From Naegleria gruberi (taxonomy: Eukaryota): a stretch of 64,000 nt of DNA. Positions within the stretch are counted from its first letter, which is position 1, and each line of letters begins with the position of its first letter. The notes beneath the pieces were generated by a model that was given only the letters and a program-made list of their open reading frames with translations, had not been told where the DNA came from and ran no database searches. The DNA is taken from the NCBI GenBank assembly GCA_000004985.1, contig GG738866.1; one strand, given 5' to 3'. The position numbers and the translations under genes are program-made. Positions 9,930-61,452 of this stretch are shown piece by piece.

Positions 9930-10747
9930 CTAATCCTCATCTGGGCCTTTAACATCAGCAGTCCAATTACTCAAATTATCCCTCAATAATTGCAATATTA
10001 ACGTTATCTCACTTGAAATGTCCTCACCAGATTCGATCAAAATCTCAAGTTCTTTCATAGCTTTTGAAAATGCTGTTTGTGCAATTTCCACAGCTTTTTC
10101 ACACTCCCCTACAACCTCATATTTAAACACTGCCTGAGACAAAATCATTCCTAATCTAAGGGGATTCAGAATACTCAATTTAGTGGAAAATTCATTTGAT
10201 ATTTCATAACATTCCAATGATTTTCCCTTCCAATCCAGTCCAGAATTTTGATAATCAACTCGTGCAATATTTCTGTACAAGTCTCCTTTTTGTTTCCAAT
10301 AATAAACACAATCTTCTACTGATTGATCTTCCAATTGTAGAATTTTATCTATTATTTCAATAATTTCAACTGTAATTTCAATACATTTTTCTTGTAAATT
10401 TTTCATAAATCGTTCAGTCAACTTGACATTATGAAATTCATTCTTTGTTTCTAGTCTATCTCTTATTGACAATACAACATGATGAGGAGTTGTATAACAA
10501 GCAATTACATTCTTATAGGCTACCAACAACAGGTTCCTCTCTTCATCAGTCGGTCGTGGTTGACTAGAGTTGAGAATTTGTAAAATCAAACTCTTTATTT
10601 CCACCATCATTTCTGCAAATAATATATTACTAATAGATCTTTGGTAAACTTGTACTCACCCTCATAAAGTTCCGTTTGTTCTAGAAATTTAATAACGAAT
10701 AATTGATCGGAACGATAGTTAGTGTCAAGTGTTTGTTTTTGTGCCAT
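9930..10747 (-). CDS. 14-3-3 protein. Exon 1 is 10660..10747 and exon 2 is 9930..10612, separated by a 47-nt intron (10613..10659).
   Basis: Signature 14-3-3 motifs are present: EERNLLLVAYKNVI, YYWKQKGDLYRNIA, NPLRLGMILSQAVFKYEV and LILQLLRDNLSNWT. Splicing exon 1 (MAQKQ...DQLFVIKFLEQTELYE) to exon 2 (EMMVEIKSL) reproduces the conserved N-terminus. The intron reads GTGAGT...TTTGCAG and is phase 1. Confidence 0.85.
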
Positions 10748-10936
10748 TTTTTTGTAAAGTATCCAACATTTGACTTGCTGTTCATTCCTTTGCGTGAGTA
10801 AGAAAGCAGGATATGCTTTTCTGCCATAGAATTTAAAAAGCTGACCGTTATATTGTTGGCGCCACTTTTACATTCCCGCCTTTTAAAATCGTTGTTTTGT
10901 TATTGAAAAAATATTTTATCAAAACACATCAAAGAA
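10748..10936. promoter_or_regulatory. Bidirectional promoter shared by the 14-3-3 gene (minus strand) and the Aurora kinase gene (plus strand). It contains the palindromic TTGGCGCCA (E2F-like) element at 10858..10863.
   Basis: This is a 189-bp head-to-head spacer. GGCGCC is rare in this roughly 32% GC DNA. Confidence 0.45.
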
Positions 10937-16048: not shown

Positions 16049-16163
16049 TTTTTATTATTAATTTTTAAATAAAAAACCAAAGTACTAGAAGGCGCCAATA
16101 CGTAATTTCCTTACTAGAAGGTTTTGATTTTCAAACATTTTGACAAGTTGAGTACCTACCTTC

Positions 16164-17723: not shown

Positions 17724-18896
17724 ATGATTAAACGGAAGTGTTTGAAGGAGGAGGCTAGCATTGTTTGGAACGAGAGAATAGAAGAAAGAAGATTGCAAAT
17801 ATTGAAAAAACGATTATTGTTGAAGGAACAAATTTTGGAGGAAATTAGAGAAAGTGGGGATGAGGAATTGGAAATGTCGGGAAGTAAAAAGAAAAAGCCT
17901 TTGGAAAAAACTATCACAAAGTTTGTTAAAAAGCATAGACTTTTGCCTTTGATGCAAGAGGAGTATTTACTTCCGAATGATGAATTTACTTGTGAAACTG
18001 ATGACCAAATGCTACGATTAGTATTTGATAAGAATAACTGGAATGAAAATGACTGGTATTTGTTGTATAGGCCACAAGGGAGGAGAGTATTGGTAATATC
18101 TAACAATATGTATACATTTGTTGTGGAAATGAAAGCTAAAGAGAATAATTTATTTATCAAAAAATATCTTTCAGTTTTACAAAGTATTGGAGGAAAACGT
18201 CAGTCTTTTACAATATTAGATGCTATTTTATACGAAACTAATGAAGAGAAGAAGCTTTATATACTTGATCTAATTGCTTGGAATGGGCATTATTTTAGCT
18301 CTAACCCAGCCGAGTTTAGATTTTATTGGCTCACCCAAAAATGGAGGGAGGATCTCAACGACAATATGTACACTAAAGATCAGATAGATATGGAGCTTTG
18401 TGAAAGGATTTCCCTCAACGAATTTTTTGCCAATGTTGACAAATACCATCCAAATTATGAAACAGATGGTCTATATCTTTATCATAAGGAAGGGGATTAC
18501 GTTCATGAGACCTCTCCTTTCTTATTAGTATTTAGAACTTTTAATAATTGCACGTATTTGAAAGAGTTAATGCAATCAGGAATATTCACATTCAAAATGA
18601 TGTATGAAAAGCATGATTCACTGGCAAGTATTAAAATTGGCCAATTAGAAGTTAAGGTTGGAGTTTTACCTCATATTGAAACTAAATCTGTTGTAAAAGT
18701 TAAATTAAGGCTAAAACAAAATGTTATGGTAGATGATGATATTCAATCGGATAATTTTGAAATTATTTCTATTGAAGAGGATCCACTTTTTAAAATAATT
18801 GGAAAAGGAGAAGGGGAAAGCTATTGTGATACTTTTGGAAAAGTGCTTTTTTACTTATCTATTCAAAATTTACAAAATGATGCAATGATACTTTAA
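17724..18896 (+). CDS. Snurportin-1-like m3G-cap snRNP import adaptor.
   Basis: The N-terminus resembles an IBB domain, with basic and acidic residues (RRLQILKKRLLLKEQ). Cap-binding domain blocks are present: FTILDAILYE...LYILDLIAWNGHYF, FRFYWLTQKW and ETDGLYLYHKEGDY. Confidence 0.7.
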   Translation: MIKRKCLKEEASIVWNERIEERRLQILKKRLLLKEQILEEIRESGDEELEMSGSKKKKPLEKTITKFVKKHRLLPLMQEEYLLPNDEFTCETDDQMLRLVFDKNNWNENDWYLLYRPQGRRVLVISNNMYTFVVEMKAKENNLFIKKYLSVLQSIGGKRQSFTILDAILYETNEEKKLYILDLIAWNGHYFSSNPAEFRFYWLTQKWREDLNDNMYTKDQIDMELCERISLNEFFANVDKYHPNYETDGLYLYHKEGDYVHETSPFLLVFRTFNNCTYLKELMQSGIFTFKMMYEKHDSLASIKIGQLEVKVGVLPHIETKSVVKVKLRLKQNVMVDDDIQSDNFEIISIEEDPLFKIIGKGEGESYCDTFGKVLFYLSIQNLQNDAMIL

Positions 18897-20805
18897 GCAA
18901 ACGTTCCTATTTCCATATCCTCACTAACCTCTGACATGTCGATAACATTTGCCATATCATATTGTGAACTCTCTTCTTGAACGGGCACTCCTTCATCAAC
19001 TTGGGAAATATCTCTCGGAATTGGTAGATTAGCAATTTCAGTCAACCACTTTTCATTATAGAGGAAATATTTTTTCCTCTTAATGATATCTGTCCACTGA
19101 CCATCACATTCACAAATTATATCAAGCATCATATCAGATGTTGAGGCAATTTGTTCATTCTCGTCTTGATATAACTCTATAATAACCTTGATAATATGGT
19201 GCTGACTCATTAAACCTTCCCTTGTTGGTCCAAATAAAAGCATCTTGTAGAATGTGTACATGGTTTGTAAAACTATTTCATCATCTTCTTGTTTTTCAAT
19301 AAATATATTACATAAGGTAATTATCATTGGAGAATTGGCTACTAAAGCTGCTGATTCATCATCAGAAATTGCATTACCAAGAAGAATAATTGATTCTAAC
19401 AGAATATCATCATCTTTGTCGCCTTCCACATTGGTTAACGAGTTAACAAGGCTGCTTCTTGTTTTTACCCCCTTTTTCAAGAAATTGAATAAGAAAGCAA
19501 CCAAATCAAATTGTTTGAATAGCTGAGAAAATGAAATAACATTCGAGTTACTCATATTTCCCAACATACCCAGTAATTCTACAACCAATTCATCATTTTC
19601 CGCCTTAGAACAAATACCTAGGATGTCATTTACAAATGGCTTGAATTGAATAGCCAGTTGAGTATGCTGAGAAATATTTCTAATCATCTTGGCTAAGAAA
19701 GGATCTCTTGTCCTCACCAATCTCTCCAATAATCTTGTAAGACCATTATTGTGCAAACACATTTTAACAGCCAATTGTTCTTGAAGTGTAACATTGATGG
19801 CTAAGGCAATTAATTCCTTGCTGACTCTTGTACCAGGATATTCTGCAACAAATTCCAAAAGAATAAATGGGAGAGTATCAGAGGAAATTCTCAATTTTGA
19901 AAATTCTTCATCTTGACTCAATTGATACAACAGCTTTACACAGTATTCAAAGTGGTCTGGGAACCGAAGTAACTCTATGAATTTAGGAACCAAAGGAATG
20001 ACATCCTTTCTTAATTGAGGATCGAAGGTAACATTGACAATCAATCTCATACTTTCATTCAACAAAATAATGTTGTCATATTGGAAAATATCTTCAAATT
20101 TAAACATAAGTCCAGCGTCCAACATTTCCCTTCTGTTTTCTTGGAATATACTAAGTTTCCTCAAAAATGTTACTAGAACACAAAGCAGTTCAGGGTTTTC
20201 ACTATCTAGAGCATTGACCAAGTTTGGAATCAATCCTCTCTTCTTCATTTTGGATTCTATGTCAATGTTCTCTGCTAAATTCAATAAAATTCTAAAGCAA
20301 ACATAAAGAAGATTCTCTTGTTTGGTTATCATACCTCCAACTTTCTTATTTTCATTCTTATTTTCCTTCTTCTTTAACATTTTTTCTCTTCTTTTTTCCT
20401 CATAGGCAATTGCTTCCATCACTACAACTCCAACCTTGAATTTGGTGATTATTTCATGAAATTGAGAAAAATGGGAAAAACTATAAAACACATAGAGTAT
20501 ATTAATCATCAAGTCCATACTCTTTTTTCCTTCCTCCCTCAATGTTCTTCCGAGTAAGTTTAATAATTGTTCTATTTCGTTGTTCCACCTCAACTAATTC
20601 CTAATGTTATTTACTTACCATGAGACACTAGGTACTGTAAATTCACTGGATTTTTCGAGAGCATCATTATATAATAAGATGCCTTGACCTTAGGAGTCAA
20701 ATCACCATGCTCATAAAACATTTCGAGATACCTATCTAGTTGATCGATAGAAATGTATTCCTCTCCCGGGTTGTTGTTTGATGAGGCGCTTTGTACCCTA
20801 CTCAT
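18893..20805 (-). CDS. Kinesin-associated protein 3 (KAP3/KIFAP3), the accessory subunit of heterotrimeric kinesin-II and an armadillo-repeat protein. Exons are 20620..20805 and 18893..20571, with a 48-nt intron (20572..20619).
   Basis: Exon 1 ends ...PVNLQYLVSHG. Splicing GTAAGT...GAAATAG (phase 1) gives ...G-E-QLLNLLGRTLREEGKKSMDLMINILYVFYSFSHFSQFH, matching human KIFAP3 ...[41 protein letters not shown]. The block AKMIRNISQH is also conserved. Confidence 0.8.
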
Positions 20806-21095
20806 TTTTTATTGGAAGTACTTGTAATTACTCGTGAATAACTGTTTGGCGGGATTCATCAACAGACATAAGAAATCCAAATTGGTGGTAGTTTAGTTCT
20901 TCTTCAGCTCACAATGACCCTCCACAGAGATAACATTCACTCATATTGAGAAGAGAGCAACTTGTAAAAACAGGATGAATGTTTCTCACCCTTCGTTCTA
21001 CTCATAAACGAACATGCAACACTTATGAAGTTGATTGTATTTCCTTTTGTTGTCAAAAAAGCGCCAAAGTCTACAATAAATAAAACCTTAAAAAA
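20806..21095. promoter_or_regulatory. Divergent promoter shared by KAP3 (minus strand) and the KATNIP-like gene (plus strand). It contains a GCGCCAAA (E2F-like) element at 21061..21068.
   Basis: This is a 290-bp head-to-head spacer between two cilium-related genes. The motif lies about 30 nt upstream of the KATNIP ATG. Confidence 0.4.
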
Positions 21096-24000
21096 ATGAG
21101 TGATGGTGATAGCCCTTCCCGAAGACTCAATGCCTTTGGTGGCTCTTCTCCATTAGAAAATGATCAATTCGATGATTTGGATGATACAACAAGGAAAAAC
21201 AAATGGGATATGAAGAGAAATAATGGAGGTGGAGGCGGTTTTAGTATTCCATCTTTGAATGAAGTAGGTTTTGTGCTTATATTGTTGATAGTTAAAAAAC
21301 AATAGTCGATAGTAATTCCTTCGATACCGTCGTTGGGAACAATACAACCAACAATATCTAAAAACATTACTAGCATAAATTCCATGCCAGCAAGTGGTTT
21401 TAAAATTCCCAATAATACAAACATCAACTTTAATGCTACTAAGGAGCCGCCAAACAAAGAATACAGCGAGTATTTGGCAAAGCTACAACAAAGGAATAGA
21501 GAGAAAAAGAGAATGGAGGATGATCCAAGAAAAAGGGAACTTGAGGAAAAAGAAAGAGGATTTAATTTAAATTGGAGTGGAGCTAATAATAACAAAAAAG
21601 ATAAAACTTTGAAGACTACTACATCAAATGAGGACTTTACCGAACCCACTACAAAAATTAAAATCAGAAGAAGCAGACCAACCGGCTACGCGGACAGAAA
21701 CCAAATAAAAAGTGAAGAGAAACGTGGTTGGAAACAATCAACAATAGCTATGAAGAAGGAAAATGGAGAAATGGAACGAATAACACCAGAAAAACCTAGT
21801 ATGTTTGAAGGCGATGATGAGCAAGAGGATGCCTCAGAAATACTCTTCAGAAAGAAAACGAGAGTCACACTCAACAAGGACGACATTGAAGCTCTCAGAA
21901 AGAGCCTAAGTTCTTTAGATTGTCCTAATGAAGAGAGTTTAGCTCATTTATCGACAATGGATACCTTAATTGAAAAATTGAAAAGACTGGACCAATCCAA
22001 ACAGAAATATTTGCTAAAGGTATTAGAAAAATTGGAACAGACAGATAAAACTGTCGAATTAGATGTTTCAGAGGACGAAGAAACTCCTAAAAAAACTGTT
22101 CAAACACCTTCAAAACAGCAAAATGATACATACTGCATAAGAATTTTAAGCACTTGGGGACATTCTAGTAACGTTGGTCTTACTGAAATAGAACTTTATT
22201 CTTTTGATGAAACAAAAATCGAGATTGTGGATGATCAAGTGAATCTTAAGGGTGGACTTGGTGGAAAAGGAAACATTATGCGATTATTCAATGGAAAGAA
22301 AAAGACCACAAACGACCAAAACATGTGGCAAACCTCTTTCCCTACTTTAAGTTATTTAGAAATATTTATAACAATTCCAAGCTTTCTTCCAGTAACAAAT
22401 ATCATTGTTTGGAACTTTAACAAGAGTATTAATGTAAGTAACAATTGTTATTAGGTGATTTCTGACTCGAAAAAGGAAAGTGTTAAAGGAGTGAGAGAAG
22501 TTGAAATCCTTAGAAATGATGACCAGGTATGGAAAGGAACTATACAAAGAGGAAATGGAAATAATGCCTTTGATTACTCAACATCTATTCAAGTTATGAG
22601 TCCAGAAGAAATGCAAGCAAAAAGATCTTCATTTAAACCACAAAAAATTGAAATTGTGCAAGTGTCACCAATCCCAAAGAAAGAATTCTCACCAGAACCT
22701 TCCAACAGTGGTAATGCTATCTCCAGTAAAATGGCTCTTTACGATAGTGAAGAAAGCGAAGAAAGCGAGGAGTCTTCGGAAGAGGAAGATGTTACTTCTT
22801 ACACTTTAGAAATTGAGGATGATGATGACTTACTCAAGCTCACAGAAGATAGGAGATCAAGCCCTCCAACCGTTCCACCACTCTCTATTTCTTTAAGAGA
22901 AGAAACACCAAAGAAGGTTGAAGAGCCTCAAAAGCCATTACATCTTGTTCCAGATGGCCCTAAAGAACAAAAGGATCCAATATGGCTTTCATTGACAAAA
23001 AATCAGAAAACACCAAAAGGAAATGTTCTTACTGATGCCCTTAAGAACACGAACCCAGAGAAGTTACCTGTGTGGTTTAGAGAACTGGAGAAAGAGCCAA
23101 CCCAGGAAAAACCAAGAAAGGTTGCTGATATTGATCTAGAAAAGAAAGAAGAGCCTCCAAAAGAATCTCCAAAAGAAGTTTTAAAAACATCTAGATCAAG
23201 AAGCAGTATCGAACAAAAGCCAACTCTTCAAACTGAAAAAAGTGTTGATTCATTACCTATCGTTACTATTGAATCTGGAAGAAAGCAACCTTCGAGATCC
23301 AAGAGCAGACCAAAGAGACCTCAAGTAATATATAATCAATCTGGTTACACTGACAAATCTTCTATTACAAACGAAACTTTTGACTCCTTAATGAAATTCA
23401 AATATTCTCATTTGGGTCGTCTTAAGCCAAGAGATGAAGAATCAAGCTCTTCTAATGAACCTACAGAAATCAAACCTCCAGTTTGGAAGATTGAAAGAAG
23501 GAAAAGCAGTCAAAAACTTATTACTAAGGATGAAGATTTAATATCGCTCCCTGCTTTAGCTCTTTCAAAAGAAAAACAACAACAACCTGAAGTTGACATT
23601 ATAGAGGAAGAAGAAGACATGGACTTCTTCATTCCAATTTATCCATCTGGTACAAAACTTGTAATCAATATTAAGGAAAGTTGGGGAGATCCCCACTATC
23701 TTGGATTGTCAGGTATAGAAATTTTCGATAAGAATGGTAACTTGCTAGTTCTAAATGATGTTTTCGCGCAAGTGAGGGCAAATCCTTCTGATATTAATAG
23801 CCTGCCAAATATTTCAAACGATCCAAGAACAATTGATAAGGTTTTCGATGGTGTGAACATGACATGTGATGATTTCCACCAGTGGTTGACACCATTTACT
23901 CCAGGAGGAGACCACTTTATATATGTTACCTTAAATGAAAGGACTACAATATCTATGATCAGATTTTGGAATTACAACAAATCAAGAATCCACTCTTATA

Positions 24001-25685
24001 GAGGTGCAAGATATTTAGAAATTTTCCTGGATGATAAGCCTATTTTCAAAGGCGAAATTAAACCTTCCCCAGGCTATTTGTCATCAGTTGAAGCTGGTTC
24101 AGAGAGTATTCTCTTCACCACTGAAACTGAGATTCTTGAAAGAATCGATAGATATGATCAAGAAGTTTATGCCAACCTTCCAACAGAACCTGAAGTTATC
24201 AATAATTGTGAAAGACCAAAAACAGCCAGTAAGGATGTAATGGATACAAGCTTTAATCCTATTGAACATTTTTCTAATATGGATCCATCCGAGAGACCAC
24301 TCACTAGCGCCCTTCCGCCTAAAGAGCAACATTTCAATAACAATAATGGTCTTGTAAGAGGTCAAAAAATAAGAATTATTTTAGAAAGCTCATGGGGTGA
24401 TCTGTTCTACATAGGGCTAACCGGTATTGAGGTTCTTGGGAAGGATGAAAAACTTATTAAGGTAACAACTGAGCAGTTGAGCGCAAAGCCTAGAGATATG
24501 AACGAAGTCGCTGGCCACTCTGGAGACTACAGAACCTTGGATAAATTAGTGGATGGTCTCAACGTTACCACTGATGACAGGCACATGTGGATGGTACCAG
24601 TTACTTTATTTAAAGAACGTCCTTATATAGAAATCGATTTAAGAAAGGAAACTGAAATTTCTGGACTCAGATTTTTCAATTATAATAAGAACCTTGAAGA
24701 TACTTTTAGAGGAGTTAAGAAAATTTCAATCTTATTAGATGACAAACCATTGCTAGACAATGAAGAGAGCTGTTTTATCCTTAAAAAAGCTCCTGGTAAC
24801 ACTAACTTTGATTTTGGTCATACTATTTTGTTCTCAGAAACTGGAACAACCTCTAACAGAAACTCTTTAGAAAATATGACGTCAAAATCAAAAGAAAACT
24901 CGGCTAGAGGTAGCTCCCTCAGAAACAGCTCTTTACTAAATGAAGGTATTCAGCAAGCTATCCTCAAGGCACAATCAATGCAAAATCTCCAACCGCCTCG
25001 TCAAGACTACCAAACGGCATTGCTTCCATGTGCCTATACTTTCAAGTTCCATTTGATTTCTTCTCTTGGCGATCCTTACTATGTTGGATTAAATGGAATC
25101 GAGCTATTTGATGCCAGACACGAGAGAATTCCTCTCACAGTTGCCAATATACAAGCAAGCCCATACAGTGTCTCGAAAGATGATGTCAGAACTCCTGACA
25201 AACTTCTTGACGGTGTCAATAACACTTGGAATGATAGCCATATGTGGTTGACTTTAATAGAACCTGGTCAAGATAATTATTTGTACATTACATTTGAGGA
25301 ACCTATTGCTGTGTCTTTTATTAAGATTTGGAATTATAGTAAAACTCCCAGCAGAGGTGTAGAAGAGTTAATTGTTTATGCGGACGATGTAATTATTTAT
25401 AAGGGATTTTTAAGAATGGCCCCTGCAATTAACGATCTTAATATTGACCTTAAGAAAGATTTTGCTCAATCCATACTATTTACAAATGACCCAACCATTT
25501 GCCAGCGAGAAAAGAAAAGAATTTATTCGAGAACTCTTGACGATCAAGATGTAAAGTATTACAATGAAAAACAATTGGTTAAACCAGCAACTCAACAACA
25601 ATTACCTCCACAATATCATGTTAAACCCCCTTCACGAGAATACTACCCTTCAACAAGACCTACAACATCCGTTGTCAATAAATAA
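21096..25685 (+). CDS. KATNIP (KIAA0556)-like protein with four DUF4457-type repeats. Exons are 21096..21263, 21306..22433 and 22455..25685, with introns of 42 nt (21264..21305) and 21 nt (22434..22454).
   Basis: Four units of the form S.WGD..Y.GL.GIE..D..G......MW....P......Y.......I...R.WNYNK are present (CIRILSTWGHSSNVGLTEIELYSF..., SWGDPHYLGLSGIEIFDKNG..., SWGDLFYIGLTGIEVLGKDE..., SLGDPYYVGLNGIELFDARH...). The 21-nt intron (GTAAGTAACAATTGTTATTAG) is needed to join ...WNFNKSIN to VISDSKKESVKGVREVEIL, and it contains an in-frame TAG. Confidence 0.7.
22434..22454 (+). other. Ultra-short 21-nt spliceosomal intron in the KATNIP-like gene.
   Basis: It reads GTAAGT...TTAG and its length is a multiple of three with an in-frame stop. 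Removing it aligns the first DUF4457 unit with the other three. Confidence 0.55.
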
Positions 25686-25724: not shown

Positions 25725-26627
25725 TTAATCTGCTTCATCATCAGAAAGTTCACTATCTCTGGATAAATCCATTTGATCATTTTCCTCTCTCACTAAGTGG
25801 CAATTCATAACATCAAGAATTGCAGGGAAATCAACTTTTTCTTGGAGTCTCTTTTGAGAAAACATTAAAATCTTTAAAAGAAGTTGAAGTTTTGGTGTTG
25901 CTTCCAACTGTTGACTTTTCAATATTGCTGAATTCAATTCACTTGCTGTTTTCTGCCTTTGACCATTTCCTAAAAGGCTCGAATATGGGCAAGACTTTTG
26001 ATCCTCAAATGCCAATAAGCTCATTACTTTTTCGACCTCCTGTAAAAACTCTGAATTATCCTCTACAAGAGGTACTAATTCTTCCTGGGCGAATCTTGTT
26101 TACAAATTGTTACAATCCATTACAATGATATTCTTACCTTAATGCATCATCTATTTTTCCACTCCTTATTAATTCAATCAATTGTTGTTGTTTCAGTTTG
26201 AAGAATAACTCTGGAGATGAATCGAGAATTTGTGGGTTCAGCATATTGACTTCTCCAATTGCTCCGATAATATCTCCCTCAATAACCTTCTTCCTAATTG
26301 TTACTCGTTCTCCAATTCCATTTGTATTAGTTTCATTTGTATCTTTGTTAACAAAGTATTGCATTATTATGCTTTCATTGTCAATTATACCTACCATCAT
26401 TCTTCAAGCCTGATTCTTGTTGAAAAACTTGAGCAGCCTCTTTATAACCCTCCACAACCAAATAATTCAAAACAAGAGAATCCAAATCACTGAAATTATA
26501 TTGATCACACTCTTAAAATAAATCATTAAAATTACCTTCTATTGATTTTAATTTGCGCCAACTTATCTTCCCACTCATTCCGATCAATAATTGATTTTTG
26601 AAAGGCTCTAACTGCTGGTTTAGACAT
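25725..26627 (-). CDS. GID8/TWA1 homologue, a LisH-CTLH-CRA subunit of the GID/CTLH E3 complex. Exons are 26536..26627, 26395..26489, 26138..26339 and 25725..26084.
   Basis: The protein rebuilds as MSKPAVRAFQKSIIDRNEWEDKLAQIKINR|SDLDSLVLNYLVVEGYKEAAQVFQQESGLKNDG|DTNE...FFKLKQQQLIELIRSGKIDDALR|EELVPLVEDNSEFLQEVEKVMSLLAFEDQ...QRQKTASELNSAIL...TPKLQLLLKILMFSQKRL. It is collinear with human GID8. Introns 1 and 2 are in phase, and intron 3 (26085..26137) is off by one nucleotide. Confidence 0.75.
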
Positions 26628-36041: not shown

Positions 36042-39000
36042 TTAAAAAGCTAAACTTGTGTTAGAATTATTACTACTAGTATTACTTGCTGCAATACCAT
36101 CTTGTGGTTCTGAATAGTTTGGTAAAATCGGTACTGCATGGGATTGTCTGATCATTTCCTCATTAAGACGTTGTAGAGCTGATGTATTAACATGCTCTGG
36201 GAATGAGAATGAATCCAAAACAGATGATCCCAATAAATGATTACTTGGACTTGCCAATGAAGAATCTGTTTGATTCATAGAACCTATTGCTGGAGGTGTT
36301 CCAGTCGATGTGGAATGGAAGCTCATACTTCTTTGGTAGGGAGGTGATCTTCCAGCTGCTCTCAAATCTCTCATACTATGAGAGGATGAAAGTGGTGGAG
36401 TTCTGCCAACAGAAATACCAAGATCAGTTTGTTCTGTCAAACATTCACTAGAATCATCAATATCAGAAAGGCACTTGTTTTCCATTGATTCTCTAAAGTG
36501 CATAGGGAATGCTTCCTCTCTTGGCTTGAATTTTGAGGTATCAGTCATATCTTTAACTCCAGGTAACACACCTACAGGTTCTTTCAATACTTTATCCCAA
36601 TCCACTCCACTCATAAATGGGTGTTCCTTTGCTGTTACTTCATTTAGACGAGTTTCTGGATTTGGATCTAAGAGTCTATCTACAAAATTCAACACTCCAC
36701 TAGCTACAATCTCTGGAGGTAAGAGTCTTTCATCAACCCAATTAATTCTTCTTGATAGAATATTATCAAAAATATATTCAGGAGTATCATCATTAAATGG
36801 TGGACAACCAAACAATAGCTCAAATACAATACATCCCAAACTCCAATAATCGACAGCTTCTGTATGTGGCATACCCAATAAAAGTTCAGGAGCCAAATAG
36901 TCAGGAGTACCTCTAACTTGAATTTCAGATTCTTCTATTTCATCTTGTCTTGCAAGAGCATCCATTGATTGTTTGCTCAATGTTTGTTCATCTTCTCTGT
37001 CAAGAACACCAATTTCACTCAAACCAAAGTCTGTTAATTTCAAGTGACCACACTTATCAATAAGCATGTTATCTGGTTTCAAATCTCTGTGTACAATCTT
37101 ATTGTGATGTAAATCAGATAAAGCTAAAATACTTTCGGCGGCAATATGTCTAACTACATCTATATCAAATGCTTCTCCATTTTCTAACTTTTCTGCTAAC
37201 AAACAATCTAAACTACCACCTGGACAATATTCCATAACAATATAGAGATATCTTTTACCAGCAAAGGAGTAGTAAAAATTAACAATAAATGGAGATTGCT
37301 CATTATTTTCCATTAGTACTTTCATGATAGTTCTTTCAGCCAATAGATCTGGCTCATTTGTGAGAGTTTTACCAACGTTCTTGTGATTATAGAGATATTG
37401 TTTCTTGATTACCTTAATAGCATAAATGTCTTTAGTTGACTTCTTTCTTGCCAAGTAAACCCTACCATAAGCACCTCTTGAAATTGGTTTAATGATCTCA
37501 AAATCAGAAATCTTAATTTTTGGCATTTTCTTAATATTTTGCTTCTCTTCATGAAGTAATGCAGTACATTTTCCTTCAATAACATCCATTAATCTTTTGG
37601 CGTATACAGAAACTCTATAGTTATTACCAGAGAAATTATCATCCTTATGTTCCTCTATTACTGTGGAAAGTACTCCAATAACTTCTTGCAATTGACTTCT
37701 ATCGTTACTCTTCTCTGCCTTCTTGGCTAATTTGAAAAGTTTGTAGAGTGAACTTGATTTTTTCTTCTTGATTGATTTTTCAATACCTCTACGAATGTTT
37801 TTCAATTTTTCAAAGGCACTAACATTTTGCATTTCAATCTTGTGTTTAACAGCACAAGTAGCACTGTGTTCTGCTAATTTAGTACTTGGTACCAATTCCT
37901 CACAAATTCTACATAAAATTTCAATAACAGTTTCTTCCTTCTTTGGCTTTGGTTGTTTCTTCAACTCTGTTGGTGTATTATTTGTAGACTTGGATTTAGT
38001 ACCAGTGGTATTGACTGACAAAAGGTTAGGATCCTCCTTCTTGGAAAATAGTGTTTTGAACTTGGAAAAGAAAGAATCTGAGAATTTTTTCTTTTCTGAG
38101 GTTGGTGTTACAGGAGTGTGAGGAATATCTTTGTTTGGTGTGGTTGCGTGTGCAGTAGCTGAAGAAGTTGATCTAGGAGAGCTTGCAGGTGAGTCATAAT
38201 CACTAGATTCCCCAGTATGTTCAGGTTTAGATGAAGAACTAACACTCGATCTTCTTGGAGAAACGCTCGTTGAACTGGTATCCTCATCGTCTGTTGAAGG
38301 TTTAAGGAAGGGTAATTTTGGATTAGGTTTTAAATTATCTTGTGATTCTGAACTGTCATAGTCAAATCTATCTCTAGATGATTCTGGTTCAACAACAGCC
38401 ATTGACCTGAATCTTTGTCTTTGCCTAACTTCTTCCTTCTCTTTTTCTCTTATTTCTTCTTCAGCTAAATGCTTCTTATACAATTCCAAAACTCTGTTAA
38501 CTCTACTATAAATAAATATGAGCTTTTTGGCTTGTTTCATAATTTCGAATTGTCTTCCAAGAGCCTGTACATCTATATTTGAGCCAGCAGTTGCAATTAA
38601 AGAACCAGGTGTTGTTGGGGTAGTTGAGAGCACATGCATTGAGGGAGAGTTACTCTGATGAGTCAAATTGGTATAGTTACCGACACAAGTTTGTAAAATG
38701 GTTTGTAATTCTCTCATAAAATCTGTTTTACAAAGATCATCAACTGTTTTAGAGCCTAAAATCTCCCTTGCTATGGCCTCAACTTGTTGTAACTCTGGAC
38801 ATGAAAATTCAACTTCCTTTAATTCCCATAAAAATGTTTTCAAATCTCTATTCATCTTATGTTGGATTACATTAGCTCGTTCTTTCAAAACATTTCCAAC
38901 TTTGTCAAATGATGAATTCAAATCTACACTCAAAGCTCTGTCTCTCGTATTTGCTATAAATAATCTCGGTGAATTTCTATCATTAATTGAAAAAGATGCA

Positions 39001-40299
39001 CTTGCTGCAGCAAACACTGATGCTTGCTTTAGAAGTGGTGATTTTTTCGCTAATTGTGGACTTTCCTCATCCAATTCATTGAGATCATCACCAAAACAGT
39101 CATCCTTTCTCATATCCCATTTTGGATCCACATTATGTCTCACAAATGATGAAGCAAGAAGTCTATTTGAATGAAAAACACTTTGTGCTCTCTTCAGTGG
39201 AGGTGGTTGAAAACCAGCATGAACACTTTGTCCTCTATTTCTATTATATCCACCACTATAAGAACTGTTATTTTGTGTAGCACTAATCGGTGAGAAATTT
39301 CCAGTGTATGATGAACTGATCTGTGGTTGAAATACTCCAGAGTAATTACTACTTCCAGAACTTCCAGAACTGTTTCCTTCATTATTGTGAGTCATACTTA
39401 AATGTGATATTGTAATAGCACTTGTTGATTGATATGGATTCACTGGTGTTGTTGGTGTGGGTGATTGATTTTGTGACATCTTTGGTAATTGAACCAAAGG
39501 AAAGTTGTATCCAAGTAAATTATTTAAAGAAGTGCTGTGTCCTCTATTTCTCGAAGGTAAACTTTTAATACTATTCAATCAATTAGTGTTAAACAAATTA
39601 ATTAAATACATACGCGAAATCAGAATAATTATGATATAATACAGTTGGTGATATTGGTGGTGATTGTTGTGGTGGTACTGCTCGTTTAGCTACTTGTGAC
39701 TTATTTTGTGGAGTGGCATCATTGGTGGTCGTGTTTTGTTGTTGTGTTTGTGGTTGAGTATGGGTAGTATCAATTTGGGGAAGTGATTTCGCCTTCTTAT
39801 CTAAAGGCTTTTGTTGATTATTTTCGTTTTTAGGTGATTTTGGTGTTTCTTGTTGCTGCTGACTTGTTGTGTTGTTGTTATTATTATTATTATTATTAAC
39901 ATTGTTTGATGGTAAGAGTTGTATATGTGTTGGAGACATTTCACATTCCTCCGATATACTTGATAAGAGTCCTGATTCATCAATGGAATTTAATGATGAG
40001 AAGAAGGAAACTCTCTTTGATGAAGATCTCCACAAACGAGTGTTGTTATTATTATTGGTTGAAGTTGTTGTTTCTGGTTGAAGATTGGATGATGACATTG
40101 ATGAAGAAGGAGAGGATATCCTATTATTATTTGGGGTAGTAGTAGTCATGGAAGAAGAGGAGGAACAAGCCTGCTGTTGTTGTTGTTGTTGTCTATTATT
40201 CTCTTCTCGGGTGGTGGTAGTGGTGTTTGCAGAATTTGATGAAGTAGTAGAAGAAGGAGAGGAGGCTTGTTGTTGGTATGAAGGAGGTTGCTGTTGCAT
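36042..40299 (-). CDS. MAST-family AGC Ser/Thr kinase. Exons are 39614..40299 and 36042..39570, with a 43-nt intron (39571..39613). Exon 1 is rich in Asn and Gln.
   Basis: The kinase domain reads FEIIKPISRGAYGRVYLARKK...HRDLKPDNMLI...DFGLSEIGVL, followed by a roughly 30-aa insert and then GTPDYLAPE and INWVDE, all MAST-like. An upstream DUF1908-like region is present. The intron reads GTATGT...GAATAG (phase 2) and joins ...YSDFA to IKSLPSRNRG. Confidence 0.75.
39878..39898. repeat. (TTA)n microsatellite, which encodes a poly-Asn run on the minus strand inside MAST exon 1.
   Basis: The repeat ttattattattattattatta is flanked by (tgt)n. Confidence 0.6.
40174..40191. repeat. (TTG)n microsatellite, which encodes a poly-Gln run as (CAA)n on the minus strand inside MAST exon 1.
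   Basis: The repeat is tgttgttgttgttgttgt. Confidence 0.6.
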
Positions 40300-46815: not shown

Positions 46816-49476
46816 CTATTTGAAAATAGTTTCTTCTTCTTTAGCAACCATTGATTGATTATACTCCTTTGTAAAGAAGTGTTTGATGATTTGAATTTTT
46901 CCTTTGAGTTGTTTCTTTTTCATTTCCATTGACATGTGTTTTGGAGAACGTAACAGAACATCAGCAAAACCTTGAGCTAACGAATCTGGACTCAAACCAT
47001 TAGCATCACTGTTCATTAAAACTTCACGTAAGAAATTCATTACATAATGCCAAACATTGTAATGAGTTGGTGATAGGTTATTCTCTATTAATTCTCTACA
47101 ACTATCTGGATTAAACCATTGTTCCATTAAAACTCTGTATAATTTTGGTGGAATAATTGGGTCTACTAGACTTTCAAAAAATTGAATCAGACAACTACAA
47201 ACAGAGTGAATTGAACCTGATGTGAAATGTTTAGAAAGTGACATTCCATTGTCAAGTAATTCTCTACAAGTTCTAATTTGATCTGTTACTCCTTGAACTT
47301 GGAATAGACCCTCTTCTCTAATTCCATATTTTACAATGTGATCACAGAGGAAGAATAATTCTTTAGGAATGAATAATCTTTCAATGAGATTGTCATTCTC
47401 ATCATAATATTGTACAGTTTTACATTTTGGATCTCTGACACTAGTGAAACATTCAACTAGATTATCAAGTGAATTTCCAAAACAAGATTTTAAATAATTT
47501 CCATAAACTCTGATTGGATGATCTTTTCCATTATCAACATGAATTAAAAGATTATCTTCAAATATTAAAGGTTTTTGAGTATCCATTAAATTAAATTGTG
47601 CAGCACTATTAGCATTGAAACAACAAATAAATTCAATTTCCAATGTTTCACCTGGTATTAATAATCTACGAATGGATGAAATGGTCAACCAATCTTGACA
47701 AATTTTCTCATCTAAACCTTTCTTTGTAAAGAAAAATTCAGAAACAACAGAACCAACATTCTTAACAAGTAAAGTAACTGATTGTGGAACACCAAATTTA
47801 GCATTTTCAAAATGAATTTCATTAGCAGATAATTGTATAGTTGGTTCATTGGATGGTAAACTGTTAATAAATTGATTTGTTGAAATTTGTGGTGTTTTTG
47901 GAAATAATTGTTCATATTCTCTTGCAATTGATTCTCTTGTTTGTCTAAATTTATGTTCAACTTCAATTTGAACATCAGTTTCAAATATAGAACTAACAGG
48001 TAAATGATCACTCATTAATAAATTTAAATGAGTTTGATAACATAATTGTTTAACTGAATCTCTTTTAACTCCCTTCCATAAAATTCTATCAGTATATGAA
48101 GGAATACGTCTCTTTTCAGATGTATCAAATGTTAAAGTACCTGGATCATATTTATAGGTTGGTGGAAATGTAATTCTACCTTCTTTAAATCCCATAAAAA
48201 CACGTCCACTCATCTTTTCAACTGTCAATTGATCATATTCTAATAGTGATTTATATTGTTCTTGAACAACATATTCTTCCACTTGATTTCTTTCTAAATT
48301 ATCAATACGATAATTTAAATCTCCAAACCAGAAAAAGTAATCATGTTGATCAGGTAACATGGATTGTCCCATAATTGATTGATTCAATCCTTGAAGTGGT
48401 GATGATATTTCATTATTATTACTATTACCTGATAATAAATTACCACTACTATTATTGCTAGAATTGTTAGATGTGTTGGAATTATTGGTAGCAGTAGTTG
48501 GTGAATTTAAATTAATAGTTAAAGTTGATGAATTATTTTCATTTTCAATTTTAGCAAATTCCAATTGAGTGAAAATGTCCATAAAATTTTGATTTCTCTT
48601 TTGAATGGCACCTTGATGAGGAGCCAAGTGAGTTGTTACAAAACACATTGTTGTCTCTGCAACTTTTAAACGTATACCAACAGCACCCTTATTACCCATC
48701 ACACCCATTGCACCCAAAGCCAATGAAACAGCTTGAACATCTCTCACTTGTGAATGAAATTTTTCATTAATAAAGAGACAACAAAACATTCCAACAAGTT
48801 GCTTATCTGCTAATCTAATATATTTAGATTTAGATGAACATTGTAATTCAGATTCTAATACTTGAATCCATTCTAATTTTGATTGAGTTTCTTTTTTTAA
48901 CATTGCTTCTGCTGTCATGTCAATTTCTTGTAATCCAATTGCAATAATATCAGGTTGTTCATTTAAATGTAACCATTCATCAATTGGATCAATATGTAAT
49001 ATTTTATCTTGTTCTAAATCTGTTAAATTGGATGTTAAAATTGGTTGAATCATTTGACTTGCTGAAATTGTTGCTTGATCAATTAGTGATTCTGTTAAAT
49101 CATCTGTACTTGATCTACTCAGTGTGGAAAGTAAATTTCTTTTACTACTGCTACTGCTACCTCCAGATGGTTGAGGAGGAGTTGATGATGATGATGATAA
49201 ATTATTGGGAGTATTTGGAGTGGTTGTTGTTGTTACTTGTTTCTTTTTTCCGAAAATATTTGGTAATTTACTATTAACATTCCAAGTACCAATGGCAATT
49301 TTAAATTTATGATTTTCTATAAAATTAGAACGACGTTGTTTTAATTGATTTTGTATGTATTGATCTTTCTTTGATGAAGTTAATAATGATGATGATGAAT
49401 TCTTTTGAACATTAGTTGGTAAACTAATGGATAGATATTGTTCCATGTCATTACTAGCAATTGCTGAAGACAACAT
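46816..49476 (-). CDS. Inositol polyphosphate 5-phosphatase with a C-terminal ASH and RhoGAP-like module (OCRL/INPP5B or Dd5P4 type).
   Basis: 5-phosphatase catalytic motifs are present (FWFGDLNYRI, PSYTDRILWKG). A RhoGAP-like C-terminus follows (ELFFLCDHIVKYGIREEGLFQVQGV...). Confidence 0.75.
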   Translation of the reverse strand: MLSSAIASNDMEQYLSISLPTNVQKNSSSSLLTSSKKDQYIQNQLKQRRSNFIENHKFKIAIGTWNVNSKLPNIFGKKKQVTTTTTPNTPNNLSSSSSTPPQPSGGSSSSSKRNLLSTLSRSSTDDLTESLIDQATISASQMIQPILTSNLTDLEQDKILHIDPIDEWLHLNEQPDIIAIGLQEIDMTAEAMLKKETQSKLEWIQVLESELQCSSKSKYIRLADKQLVGMFCCLFINEKFHSQVRDVQAVSLALGAMGVMGNKGAVGIRLKVAETTMCFVTTHLAPHQGAIQKRNQNFMDIFTQLEFAKIENENNSSTLTINLNSPTTATNNSNTSNNSSNNSSGNLLSGNSNNNEISSPLQGLNQSIMGQSMLPDQHDYFFWFGDLNYRIDNLERNQVEEYVVQEQYKSLLEYDQLTVEKMSGRVFMGFKEGRITFPPTYKYDPGTLTFDTSEKRRIPSYTDRILWKGVKRDSVKQLCYQTHLNLLMSDHLPVSSIFETDVQIEVEHKFRQTRESIAREYEQLFPKTPQISTNQFINSLPSNEPTIQLSANEIHFENAKFGVPQSVTLLVKNVGSVVSEFFFTKKGLDEKICQDWLTISSIRRLLIPGETLEIEFICCFNANSAAQFNLMDTQKPLIFEDNLLIHVDNGKDHPIRVYGNYLKSCFGNSLDNLVECFTSVRDPKCKTVQYYDENDNLIERLFIPKELFFLCDHIVKYGIREEGLFQVQGVTDQIRTCRELLDNGMSLSKHFTSGSIHSVCSCLIQFFESLVDPIIPPKLYRVLMEQWFNPDSCRELIENNLSPTHYNVWHYVMNFLREVLMNSDANGLSPDSLAQGFADVLLRSPKHMSMEMKKKQLKGKIQIIKHFFTKEYNQSMVAKEEETIFK

Positions 49477-49793: not shown

Positions 49794-52700
49794 TTAAGAA
49801 AGGATGAGAGACATTACAACATCAATAGTGTCATCTTGTGTAGTACCATGAGAAACAATCAACAACTTTAAAACATGATGCAAATGCTCTGCGAGTTGAG
49901 GATAGAAAAGTAGGAAGGAATCAATGAATCGTTTGTCTTGGAAAATAGCTTTTTCAAAGTTTGTTTCCATAACATAGATTACTTCATTTTCAATATCTGA
50001 ATGGATATCTCTGGATATTTCACATGAATTTCCATTTCCTATAATTGCTGTGACTGACAAGCTTTGAACTATTTGAAGATCCATTTCTTTTGGAGTGAAA
50101 CCTTGACGAGATAGATACTTATTGATATTTTGAACCATTACCTTAAATTTCTTCAAAATATTATCACAATCTGTAGTGGATGGTGTAGTCTTTGGATGCT
50201 TGTAAGAAATCGTATCACTCAATGGTTTAATTTTAAAAAATTGGAGAAAGTGTGATAATTCTGTTACATTTCTAACAAATAAACAATCAACAACATTTTG
50301 TAATTGTTTGTAACTTTCCTCATTATCACAATAATAAATTGCTTCTGAAAAATGTATTCCCTTATCACTTCTAAAGATCTTGTAGTTATTACAAAAGGCT
50401 CTGTCAAGTCTATCATTCTTGATTTGGCGATTGATCTCTTTGTATAAAACTAAACATTTGTTGTCAGCATTATCAGTATCCTTCTCGAGCTTTTCAATTT
50501 CTTTACAAATAATGTGGAATGGAATTTCTTGAGAAATATCAAAATCATTATACTTATTATCGACTTGTAATAAATTCAAAGCAGGAAAATCAACCATTAA
50601 TTCAGGGCTCAGTATCTTGAATAATTCTGTTTTCTTGTGTTTTCTATTGTGGCAAACAATCAACCCATTATCATAAATAAACTTGAGCATTTTCTGTTTG
50701 TAACAAGTTCTCTTACAATATTTCCAAACATTAAGAAATTGATCATCGGTGATATTATCAGACAAGAGGAATTCTCTAATCTTCTCCTCAGGTACAACTC
50801 TTTCCTTGTTATTGTCTTTGTATTTCACAAGATTTGACAATTTACCAAACCTCCTGGATAGATCAAGTTCCCTAAAGAATGGAATATCTTTCAACTCTAA
50901 TAAATCCCAAATCATGGAAGATGGAAGTGAAAAACTAAAACCTTCAGAAACAAGCACTTCTAATTGGGATAGTTCTTTGTTGCTTAATTTTGAAATGTCG
51001 TTCACTACAATACTGTTCAAGTGCGTCTTGAGGATTTGACAAAGATCTGGAAGTGTTTTGATATCATTTGATTGAATTACATTCTTAATAATAGTACTAT
51101 TAGGAAAGTAATTATATAAAAGTAATTCGTTAACTTCAATAGGGAATACTTCTCGCATTGAAAGATCCCAATACATTTTGGAAAGCGGTATCTTCTTGTC
51201 ATTGTTAGCAGTTACATAAATTCCACTTAAAGAAACAATGGCTGTTGAAGTAGAACTCCTTCGTGTATTGATAATAGCTTCTATGAAATATTGTTGGTCG
51301 CTTTTTGTTGGATTTTCATCAAGCAAAATAGTTTCATAATGACTTGTGGAAAGGGTATTGAGGATGGAGTTAATCTCACCATATTTGTAGCTGTTGTGTA
51401 TTTCTTTCCACTCAGGTCTGTACTTTTGAAGCTTTGCATCCATGGAGTAGAATAGATTGTTATCTAAAACAACGAATTCACCATTTGTGGTTATTAGTAG
51501 TGGTTGTGTTTTGAGTAACTTTTGAATGTGTGTGGAAAATTGTGATTTTAAACCATGTACAATAGATGACACACTTTTTGTTTTCATGATTAAATTTTGG
51601 TAAGCTTGTAGATCTTCTTTTTTTGCTCTCAATCCTTCTTTCAACTTGGCGTTCTTGATATAAGGTAAATAATCAATGGTATCACTGAAAATCTTACGTA
51701 GATCGGGATCATAAAGATTTTGAATATTCTTGTTCAAGAAATTGTGAATACCATTGATTTGGTTCTGGAATAATGAAAAATTATTGTCGAAATATTCTAT
51801 CAAGCTCTCTAAAGTTTGGTATTGTTTTCTGAGCTCCTTAAATTCTAATGTTTCTTCATAATTATACGAATATGATTGCTGTCTAAAAAGAGTGGGAACT
51901 GTTTTTGTTCCCAACTCTATCAAAATATTCGATATGTTGTCAGTGCTGTATATTTCATGCTTTTGCTTGTATAATATTTGTACAAGACTTTCCAAATCTA
52001 CAAACTTGGCTTTTTCCAAATATGATGTATGTTTTGAATGGATATAACATTGATTTGGGTGCAGCCACTCTCCATCTCGTGTCAAGCAAATTGGGCTTAC
52101 TAATGTCTTTCTTTCATGAAAGAGAACAAACAATTCTTCGTTTGATAATACATGTAGATTTTGGATATGTTGAGTGGTAGATATTAAGTGTTTGTAATCT
52201 TTTAAGGATGTATCAAGACAGTGATTGGAAGCTTTTTCAAGAAGTAAAAGACTGCTTTTAGATAAATCGCAATCCAAAATGTTTTCGGATGGTTTTACAA
52301 GTTTCTGAAGTCTTGTTGGTACAATTTCAAAATCCAAAGACTTGACACCAATATTAAAGTGTTTAAATAATTTGTATAATTGTACAATCTTATCAAATTT
52401 CAAATTGTATGGAAGGTTTTTAGCTAGATTAACAACATGTTGTTTCTCAAACTTTGTAAAAAGTTTATCCCATTGTTTGAACATTAGCTTTTCATTTTCA
52501 AATTTCGTGTCAATACATTCCTTGTTTAAAATAATAAAAGTTGTTTCAATTCCAAATGCTTCATAAGGATTGATAGGTGAATTACCCATTAATATAATAT
52601 TGGAGGGTTTTTCAAAATATTTAGTTTGACCTCCCAATAAAGGAATACAATCAATATTTTGTAATAGATTAATTGTTTTAAATTGTACATTGCTGAAATG

Positions 52701-54494: not shown

Positions 54495-54711
54495 TTCCGA
54501 TTAAATTATTAATTTTCATAAAAGGTTCGTGAGTAATGTTGATCTAATTTTCAAGCCTTCATGATTTATTCTTCGCCCGAAGGTCAGCACGTTGTATTAA
54601 TACTTTGCTTTAATTAACTGTTTCTTGTTTGTGTATTTTTTTCTGTTTGGTTTTTGGCGGGAATGAGTTTTTAAGCTTTTTTAAAAAAAGAAAACAATAT
54701 TTAATGCTAGT

Positions 54712-58263: not shown

Positions 58264-58384
58264 TTTTTTCCTTAATGATAAAAATATGAGAAAATGTAAC
58301 CGACAATTTTTTAAAATGAGCACACGTTGAAATTACAGTGAAAATAAAGTGAAATCTTATCTTACTATTATAATGTGTGAATCA

Positions 58385-61237: not shown

Positions 61238-61308
61238 AGGGAGATAGTTCAGTGGTAGAACATGGGATTGTGGTTCCTAAGATCAGGGTTCGATTCCCTG
61301 TCTTCCTA
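61238..61308 (+). tRNA. tRNA-His(GUG): tRNA-His (anticodon GTG).
   Basis: The molecule folds as a cloverleaf. The acceptor stem is AGGGAGA / TCTTCCT, with one G-T wobble pair. The D-stem is GTTC/GAAC and the anticodon stem TGGGA/TCCTA, with anticodon loop TTGTGGT. The variable loop is 4 nt, the T-arm is CAGGG-TTCGATT-CCCTG, and the discriminator is A. No G-1 or CCA is encoded. A T5 run follows 3 nt downstream. Confidence 0.8.
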
Positions 61309-61452
61309 CACCTTTTTGATAATTTTAATAATTTTTATTGCAAACATAATTCCAAAAACTTTGAATTTTGAGTTGGTGCTTAGGTGGCGTAACATTAAGA
61401 AAATCAAGAGATGGGATCATTTATTGAAACGAAATGAATATTTTTACCAAAT

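Follow-up and report, generated by a model that had tools for sequence, protein, structure and literature searches.

Head-to-head KAP3 and KATNIP genes of Naegleria gruberi are separated by a short, putative bidirectional promoter with a conserved E2F-type box

RESULTS

KAP3 and KATNIP are divergently arranged

We analyzed a 64-kb stretch of Naegleria gruberi DNA (contig GG738866.1; referred to as the window), in which two genes for intraflagellar transport (IFT) proteins, KAP3 and KATNIP, lie head to head. The pair had been pointed out in an original prediction made from the sequence alone, and profile searches bore out both gene identities: the KAP3 frame matched Pfam KAP (E = 2.6e-107) and the longest KATNIP frame matched DUF4457 (E = 1.3e-211). 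In line with the source of the window, the KAP open reading frame (ORF) is 100% identical to NAEGRDRAFT_79669 of N. gruberi. The G+C content is approximately 33%, and stop codons are standard. Long ORFs cover 82% of the window, and short head-to-head spacers are therefore commonplace in it. The coordinates of the features are given in Table 1.

Sequence similarity identifies the KAP3 product as the nonmotor subunit of heterotrimeric kinesin-II. The minus-strand ORF at 18896-20593 matched positions 163-675 of the KAP profile (PF05804) with 360.3 bits (gathering cut-off 25.6), and a short upstream ORF (20611-20805) matched positions 113-160. The KAP ORF gave 112 homologue matches, named kinesin-associated protein or kinesin-associated protein 3, in Naegleria, Acrasis, choanoflagellates, chytrids, and animals. 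Splicing yielded a product of 621 aa from 2 exons, with no internal stop. The intron that was removed is the sole GT-AG option by which exon 1, ending in phase 1, continues into the KAP ORF without a frameshift; with its acceptor AG at 20573-20572, the frame was restored and the N. lovaniensis junction LVSH/EQLLNLL was matched. Other splice models, with introns of 18, 25, 26, or 30 nt, were rejected, since they broke the frame or needed a poor GAG acceptor. Furthermore, exon 1 is 88-91% identical to the orthologous exon 1 of N. lovaniensis and of a metagenomic contig (L003), and N. fowleri, N. lovaniensis, and L003 all show the same start codon and the conserved N-terminus M..GEEYISIDQLD.

The match to KAP3 begins at profile position 113 and leaves the N-terminal ~110 positions of the profile uncovered. 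An extra upstream exon supplying this part was considered and rejected, because four species agree in the start and the N-terminus and because the heterolobosean KAP orthologues are equally short (595-656 aa). The short N-terminus thus looks like a lineage trait and not like a defect of the gene model. The public model NAEGRDRAFT_79669 (541 aa) is shorter still: it starts at an internal methionine, that of ...KKSMDLMINIL, and lacks the first 80 residues, which are encoded by exon 1 and the start of exon 2 (20519-20805, minus strand). Conserved counterparts of these 80 residues are present in N. fowleri, N. lovaniensis, and L003.

The divergent partner encodes a spliced product of 1508 aa (3 exons), which its domain content identifies as KATNIP/KIAA0556 with four DUF4457 jelly-roll-like repeats. 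Two plus-strand ORFs, 21333-22451 and 22455-25682, matched DUF4457 (PF14652) with E = 2.6e-12 and E = 1.3e-211, respectively, and residues 334-507 of the spliced product matched profile positions 1-178 with E = 1.1e-20. The four repeats, at approximately aa 322-512, 831-1030, 1068-1262, and 1292-1470 (mapping to approximately 22101-22694, 23649-24248, 24360-24944, and 25032-25568), have 14 invariant columns in common. N. fowleri, N. lovaniensis, and L003 share the start codon and the N-terminal motif, and the best named homologues are the "KATNIP domain-containing protein" of N. fowleri and N. lovaniensis, to which exon 3 is 65-66% identical. DUF4457 is confined to the KATNIP family, whose known orthologues have three or four units (PMC4699358, PMC10011725), and cnidarian KIAA0556-like proteins likewise give four Pfam DUF4457 stretches. 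Hence the count of four units proposed earlier was correct, but having one unit more than the human protein is not a distinction, since orthologues have three to four (PMC4699358) and cnidarians four. Judged by these comparisons, four units are the normal architecture.

The introns of both genes are tiny (47, 42, and 21 nt), with GTAAGT or GTAGGT donors and TAG acceptors, and two of the three are in frame and contain a stop codon. As a consequence, the exons look like one ORF broken by a single TAG. No N. gruberi protein was among the matches to KATNIP exon 2 or exon 3, though the N. gruberi KAP was found in the same database. The annotated protein set of N. gruberi thus seems to lack KATNIP. 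A literature search found no mention of the KAP locus tag, nor of KIAA0556 together with Naegleria. Array, proteome, and expression studies based on the public models, in which KAP exon 1 is missing and KATNIP seems to be, may have overlooked the pair.

Table 1. Coordinates of the KAP3-KATNIP pair, its spacer, and other genes of the window
Feature	Position	Strand	Remarks
KAP3 exon 2, including stop codon	18893..20571	-	Pfam KAP PF05804; 100% identity to NAEGRDRAFT_79669
KAP3 intron	20572..20618	-	47 nt, GTAAGT...ATAG, read from sequence
KAP3 exon 1	20619..20805	-	ATG at 20805-20803; weak KAP profile match, positions 113-160
Spacer, putative bidirectional promoter	20806..21095	.	290 bp, ATG to ATG
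TTTTTATT block adjoining the KAP ATG	20806..20813	+	8-mer common to three Naegleria species in the proximal alignment
Box A, TTTGGCGGGA (TCCCGCCAAA in KAP sense)	20845..20854	+	E2F-like; 39 nt from KAP ATG
Box B, GCGCCAAA	21061..21068	+	Exact E2F consensus GCGSSAAA; 27 nt from KATNIP ATG, in KATNIP sense
AAAACCTTAAAA leader just before the KATNIP ATG	21082..21093	+	Identical in three Naegleria species
KATNIP exon 1	21096..21263	+	Conserved start and N-terminal motif ...KWE/D.K.N.GGF.IPSLN
KATNIP intron 1	21264..21305	+	42 nt, GTAGGT...ATAG; in-frame TAG inside; removal keeps the frame
KATNIP exon 2	21306..22433	+	Start of DUF4457 unit 1
KATNIP intron 2	22434..22454	+	21 nt, GTAAGT...TTAG; in frame, TAG inside
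KATNIP exon 3, including stop codon	22455..25685	+	End of DUF4457 unit 1 and units 2-4
LisH/CTLH gene, convergent with KATNIP	25737..26334	-	tblastn to CTLH genes flanking KATNIP in relatives
Aurora kinase	10937 onward	+	Best solved-structure matches Aurora A, E = 1e-56
Greatwall-like kinase	36045-39578	-	Closest to Greatwall/MASTL, E = 4.5e-64
OCRL-like gene	46819-49476	-	5-phosphatase, ASH, and RhoGAP domains

The spacer retains an E2F-type box in Naegleria

The start codons of the divergent genes lie at 20805 (minus strand) and 21096 (plus strand). Since both starts agree with the conserved N-termini in three relatives, the spacer extends exactly from 20806 to 21095, as had been proposed. 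The orthologous spacers are even shorter: 109 bp in N. fowleri, 68 bp in N. lovaniensis, and 126 bp in L003. Measured between start codons, all are below 1 kb, the limit used for bidirectional promoter gene pairs.

A global MAFFT alignment of the four spacers was misleading because of their length differences; k-mer sharing with a shuffle control and proximal alignments were used instead. Only three blocks of at least 8 nt were common to the spacers of all three named species: TTTTTATT, TTTGGCGG, and AAAACCTTAAAA. The GC-rich one, TTTGGCGG(G), was present in N. gruberi, N. fowleri, and N. lovaniensis, and a GC-rich 8-mer common to three spacers arose in 17 of 5000 shuffles. In Box A, TTTGGCGG agrees with the E2F consensus TTTSSCGC at 7 of 8 positions and is thus a near-consensus site (the E2F consensus GCGSSAAA is used as quoted in PMC4862756). 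The GCGCCAAA element noted originally was indeed found in the spacer, as Box B. It has one copy in 64 kb, with 0.16 expected, and was rejected as a recurrent element of the window on account of this single copy.

The position of the boxes relative to the genes differs between the species. The N. lovaniensis spacer contains one TTTGGCGG box, 29 and 31 nt from the two ATGs, and the N. fowleri spacer contains one at 53 and 48 nt. N. gruberi has one box per gene, each in the sense of its own gene: CCGCCAAA before the KAP ATG and GCGCCAAA before the KATNIP ATG, at 39 and 27 nt, respectively. In L003, the counterpart of Box B is GCGCAAAGTCTTGGCGCC, located 33 nt before the KATNIP ATG and resembling N. 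gruberi GCGCCAAAGTCT. The motif TTTGGCGS is rare. Of its four copies in the N. gruberi window, two belong to the spacer; 25 kb of N. fowleri sequence yielded a single copy, that of the spacer, and 22 kb of N. lovaniensis sequence yielded two, one of them from the spacer. Together, these data suggest that the 290-bp spacer is a putative bidirectional promoter with an E2F-type conserved core.

The AAAACCTTAAAA leader is not a general element: its near-matches in the window were not above the shuffle expectation, and AACCTTAAAA was rejected as a general leader element for lack of enrichment in the window. The N. gruberi-specific middle of the spacer showed unremarkable RNA folding (z = 0.29) and has no repeat elsewhere in the window. 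A hidden RNA gene or structured element at this place was rejected based on the folding score and on the Rfam search, which gave no match in the spacer.

The pairing is conserved within Naegleria and absent beyond it

The head-to-head KAP-KATNIP arrangement was found in all four Naegleria-clade loci, namely, those of N. gruberi, N. fowleri (KAP on the minus and KATNIP on the plus strand), N. lovaniensis, and L003, the KAP of which is 62% identical. In each of them, the CTLH gene is convergent with KATNIP, and the three genes form a conserved block. The surroundings are less stable. Although 7 of the 11 N. lovaniensis genes of the compared locus have orthologues inside the N. gruberi window, only 3 of 10 adjacencies were kept (CTLH-KATNIP, KATNIP-KAP, and Greatwall-like-Isy1). 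This low retention indicates frequent local inversions or transpositions. With a background of approximately 30% and very short gaps at all kept adjacencies, the retention of KAP-KATNIP is suggestive but not significant on its own.

No pairing was found in Willaertia magna, Acrasis kona, and other heteroloboseans or in Salpingoeca and Marchantia; the loci without it include three further protist contigs and those labeled L004, L007, L008, and L009. Thus, the synteny check asked for originally was positive for N. fowleri, N. lovaniensis, and L003 and negative for Willaertia and more distant relatives. Within the range of these loci, the head-to-head arrangement is a feature of the Naegleria clade. 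W. magna keeps the frame from CTLH to KAP, and the interval (L002 5850-10000) is filled by two unrelated genes, an RCC1-repeat-like gene and a gene for a multi-pass membrane protein, in place of KATNIP. No KATNIP remnant was detectable in this interval, and no W. magna KATNIP was present among the database matches. Two E2F-like boxes (L002 7398 and 7642) are located at the start of the membrane protein gene.

The E2F-type box is enriched in promoters of the window

For the degenerate motif TTSSCGS, 10 of 15 sites in the window fell into the 17% counted as noncoding (P = 3e-5), compared to 3 of 10 for the control motif TTSSGCS. The listed sites are at 1752, 7564, 9283, 10856, 10873, 16092, 20846, 21061, 26555, and 54654; only the one at 16092 falls within an ORF, namely, that of Mpv17, at its 5' edge. 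The promoters concerned are those of a DUF4116 gene, the 14-3-3/Aurora spacer, Mpv17, KAP/KATNIP, CTLH/Utp13, and the gene of a 1566-aa ORF. Judged by this enrichment, the E2F-type box is a genuine promoter element that recurs fairly often, and the heptamer looks like a common one in N. gruberi promoters.

The 14-3-3 (minus strand) and Aurora (plus strand) genes form a second divergent pair, with a 326-bp spacer (10611-10936). At a distance of 55-80 bp upstream of the Aurora ATG, this spacer harbors two E2F-like boxes, namely, TTGGCGCC and TTCCCGCC. Counterpart stretches upstream of Aurora (L006 24075-24371 and W. magna L002 1-250) were compared, and boxes of the same type were found at the promoter of Aurora, a canonical E2F target: TTCCCGCC in N. 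gruberi, TTTCCCGCC in N. fowleri, and GTTCCCGC in W. magna.

An RFX or X-box-like motif, which the original prediction had suggested searching for, was not found in the spacer, when GTNRCC N1-3 RGYAAC was used with one mismatch allowed. The sole X-box-like match in the window, at 24564, lies within the KATNIP coding sequence, and 1.7 matches are expected by chance. Moreover, RFX, FOXJ1, and XAP5 are reported to be absent from Naegleria (PMC12183034). Control of the pair by RFX via an X-box was therefore rejected.

DISCUSSION

A possible role of joint expression

In Caenorhabditis elegans, the KATNIP orthologue JBTS-26 binds doublet microtubules and OSM-5/IFT88, and it competes with KAP-1 for OSM-5/IFT88, so that kinesin-II is released from the IFT trains (Wang et al. 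2025, PMC12663925). Human KIAA0556 copurifies with IFT88 and IFT52 and was positive in a test against IFT88 (PMC4699358 and its supplement). Because of this competition and copurification, the products of the Naegleria pair would be expected to act antagonistically at the same IFT step. Binding of KATNIP to microtubules, katanin, and IFT88 is known for the human and C. elegans proteins only (PMC4699358, PMC12663925), and the distribution of KIAA0556 orthologues among eukaryotes parallels that of cilia (PMC4699358).

The observation that two cilium genes are paired is confirmed by our analysis, and its interpretation as a sign of coregulation during flagellar assembly is partly supported. We propose that a shared compact promoter activates both genes jointly at times of demand for kinesin-II, the amoeba-to-flagellate transition being the most probable occasion. 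We give this proposal an even chance of being correct. The spacer would act as a compact bidirectional promoter with the E2F-type box as its conserved core. In N. lovaniensis and N. fowleri, one TTTGGCGG box would serve both genes from a distance of 29-53 nt to either ATG; in N. gruberi, the spacer would have grown to 290 bp, with an own box for each gene. An E2F/DP-like factor on the box could then drive or gate both genes, and their joint expression might keep the kinesin-II adaptor and its antagonist in proportion.

A wider version of this proposal appears doubtful to us. It states that the KAP3-KATNIP adjacency was kept by selection because the two IFT88 antagonists are needed in fixed proportion, that the mechanism of kinesin-II release dates from an early eukaryotic ancestor, and that the shared E2F-type box belongs to a ciliogenesis program operating without RFX, FOXJ1, and XAP5. 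Should this be the case, the pair would provide a first handle on how Naegleria turns on flagellar genes.

Evidence against joint control, and chance adjacency

Several observations weigh against joint control of the pair. The E2F-like box is not cilium specific, since it is enriched in promoters across the window and conserved at the Aurora promoter; it occurs at approximately one-quarter of the promoters in the window, including that of Aurora, and could indicate cell cycle control. It was not found upstream of KAP in Willaertia and Acrasis or upstream of KATNIP in L007 and L008, where the gene starts are uncertain. The E2F/DP of Naegleria is a presumed one, since E2F family members are reported for Excavata in general, in a survey that included N. 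gruberi (PMC4862756). Furthermore, the pairing is not required for function, because it is absent outside the Naegleria clade. The two N. gruberi boxes lie 208 bp apart and could mark separate promoters. Finally, the very short gaps at all three kept adjacencies fit neutral retention.

Some of these observations would also be expected if KAP3 and KATNIP were neighbors by chance in a compact genome, each gene having its own proximal elements, and if selection for joint regulation played no part. A spacer of 68-290 bp is a small target for breakpoints, and any break in it would damage a promoter. Indeed, where ORFs take up 82% of the sequence, short divergent spacers are nothing unusual (14-3-3/Aurora being an example); tiny gaps are also found at the other two kept adjacencies, KATNIP-CTLH and Greatwall-like-Isy1; a single adjacency is not significant when approximately 3 of 10 are retained; and both the lack of the pairing in Willaertia and beyond and the one-box-per-gene layout of N. 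gruberi are in agreement with chance. However, a 68-bp spacer with one central box, as in N. lovaniensis, is hard to split into two promoters; separate promoters are plausible for N. gruberi and less plausible for N. lovaniensis. The box is also retained in every Naegleria spacer. On our own rough estimate, cilium-related genes make up a few percent of genes. The documented direct functional relationship between the two proteins (PMC12663925) is unlikely for a random neighbor. On balance, we consider neutral adjacency less probable than joint control but a serious rival to it, and the same holds for the small breakpoint target as the reason for its retention.

Cell cycle control and a larger gene neighborhood

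The mitotic spindle is the only microtubule array of Naegleria amoebae. The E2F-type box might place the pair, together with Aurora, in a proliferation or mitosis program, with a role in the mitotic spindle and not in flagellar assembly. The conserved boxes of the same type at the Aurora promoter are in line with this idea, as are the nonciliary microtubule roles of KATNIP in Dictyostelium, which include anaphase spindle defects (PMC10011725), and the induction of several "flagellar" genes, such as those for central-pair components and epsilon/eta-tubulin, in Naegleria mitosis (bioRxiv 10.1101/2024.01.08.573270). In contrast, kinesin-2, to which KAP3 is the dedicated adaptor, has been described as active exclusively in flagella (bioRxiv 10.1101/2024.01.08.573270), and KIAA0556 orthologues follow the presence of cilia across eukaryotes (PMC4699358). 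The box itself is compatible with ciliogenesis, because in animal multiciliated cells the genes of basal bodies and cilia are driven by E2F4/5 outside the cell cycle (PMC12183034). We therefore regard a mitotic role of the pair as unlikely. RNA sequencing time courses exist for both differentiation and mitosis of Naegleria (Kennard et al., bioRxiv 10.1101/2024.01.08.573270).

It is highly improbable that the pair belongs to a larger cilium or centrosome neighborhood with the Aurora kinase, a MAST-like kinase, and an OCRL-like phosphatase: all three genes are in the window, and in N. fowleri and N. lovaniensis the distance of their orthologues from the pair does not exceed approximately 15 kb, but in N. 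gruberi they are 6-21 kb away with unrelated genes between them. Moreover, the "MAST" kinase resembles Greatwall, Aurora acts in mitosis, and the species differ widely in the order of the genes surrounding the pair.

Comparison to known gene pairs and programs

Human head-to-head pairs with spacers of <1 kb tend to be coexpressed and cofunctional, and E2F4/E2F6 are overrepresented among them (PMC4089025). The human CCHCR1-TCF19 pair has a 287-bp bidirectional promoter driven by E2F1 (PMC10734992). The Naegleria pair resembles CCHCR1-TCF19 and the human pairs in its divergence, a spacer of well below 1 kb, the E2F-type box, one partner linked to the centrosome or cilium, and functionally related partners. 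In contrast to human bidirectional pairs, it is known from sequence architecture and conservation, and its 68-290-bp spacers are heterolobosean, with no CpG-island context. We consider it probably one more conserved bidirectional gene pair, an ordinary kind of feature, with a modestly interesting functional rationale and a putative regulatory mechanism.

The JBTS-26/KAP-1 case of C. elegans concerns the same two families, a KAP subunit and a KATNIP with DUF4457 repeats. There, biochemistry and genetics connect the two proteins, linkage of their genes is not reported, and the mechanism serves the handover from kinesin-II to OSM-3 (PMC12663925), whereas the link in Naegleria is genomic. The promoter of C. 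elegans K04F10.2, a member of the KATNIP family, contains an X-box (PMC4699358). This resembles the situation in Naegleria in that the same gene family has a cis-element of cilium genes near the start codon, but the Naegleria spacer is devoid of an X-box and has an E2F-like element instead. The E2F4/5-MCIDAS/GEMC1 program (PMC12183034) is similar in that basal-body and cilium genes activated outside S phase have E2F family sites in their upstream regions. MCIDAS and GEMC1, however, are animal factors, and the action of E2F on the Naegleria spacer is putative.

How ciliary genes are activated in protists lacking RFX, FOXJ1, and XAP5 is an open question (PMC12183034). A putative promoter of 68-290 bp, with one conserved E2F-type box, for two proteins of the same IFT step is a small, well-defined object for reporter, binding, and motif enrichment studies. 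Naegleria makes basal bodies and flagella from nothing in approximately 1 hour. The pairing also lends independent genomic-context support, from a distant eukaryote, to the recently reported competition of KATNIP and KAP at IFT88, which bears on Joubert syndrome 26. Should coexpression of the pair be lacking, the locus would be merely another short divergent spacer in a compact genome.

Other genes of the window

The OCRL-like phosphatase and the Aurora kinase were named correctly from the outset, as their domains and structure matches confirm (Table 1). For the presumed MAST kinase, the kinase assignment stood and the MAST label did not, since the closest matches are Greatwall/MASTL and no DUF1908 or PDZ domain was found. 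This Greatwall-like gene is convergent with Isy1, at a distance of 4 bp, and the two are also adjacent in N. lovaniensis. The nearest neighbors of the KAP3-KATNIP pair are snurportin, CARME, LisH/CTLH, and Utp13, and the Aurora, Greatwall-like, and OCRL-like genes are dispersed among approximately 30 unrelated genes. The intervening genes include those for snurportin, carnosine N-methyltransferase, Mpv17, Utp13, eIF4E, a Na/Ca exchanger, Isy1, ECH, RPN11, and SRP68. The occurrence of these three genes in the window does not exceed chance, and a cilium gene cluster around the pair, as suggested earlier, is not supported.

The sole Rfam or ARAGORN match within the window is a tRNA-His (GTG) at 61238-61309 (plus strand). 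Three further ORFs lie on the minus strand. The 1566-aa ORF at 49797-54494 has no Pfam match; its motif ...IQNADDS...GEKGIGFKTIF... makes it, by eye, a candidate GHKL-type ATPase (sacsin/NO VEIN-like). A perfect TTTGGCGGGAA box is located approximately 160 bp upstream of it, at 54653-54663. The 1203-aa ORF at 54715-58323, also with no Pfam match, is rich in serine, glutamate, and proline and has a coiled-coil-like C-terminus. It is followed at 58388-59245 by a 286-aa coiled-coil ORF with a RING-like cysteine pattern at the C-terminus.

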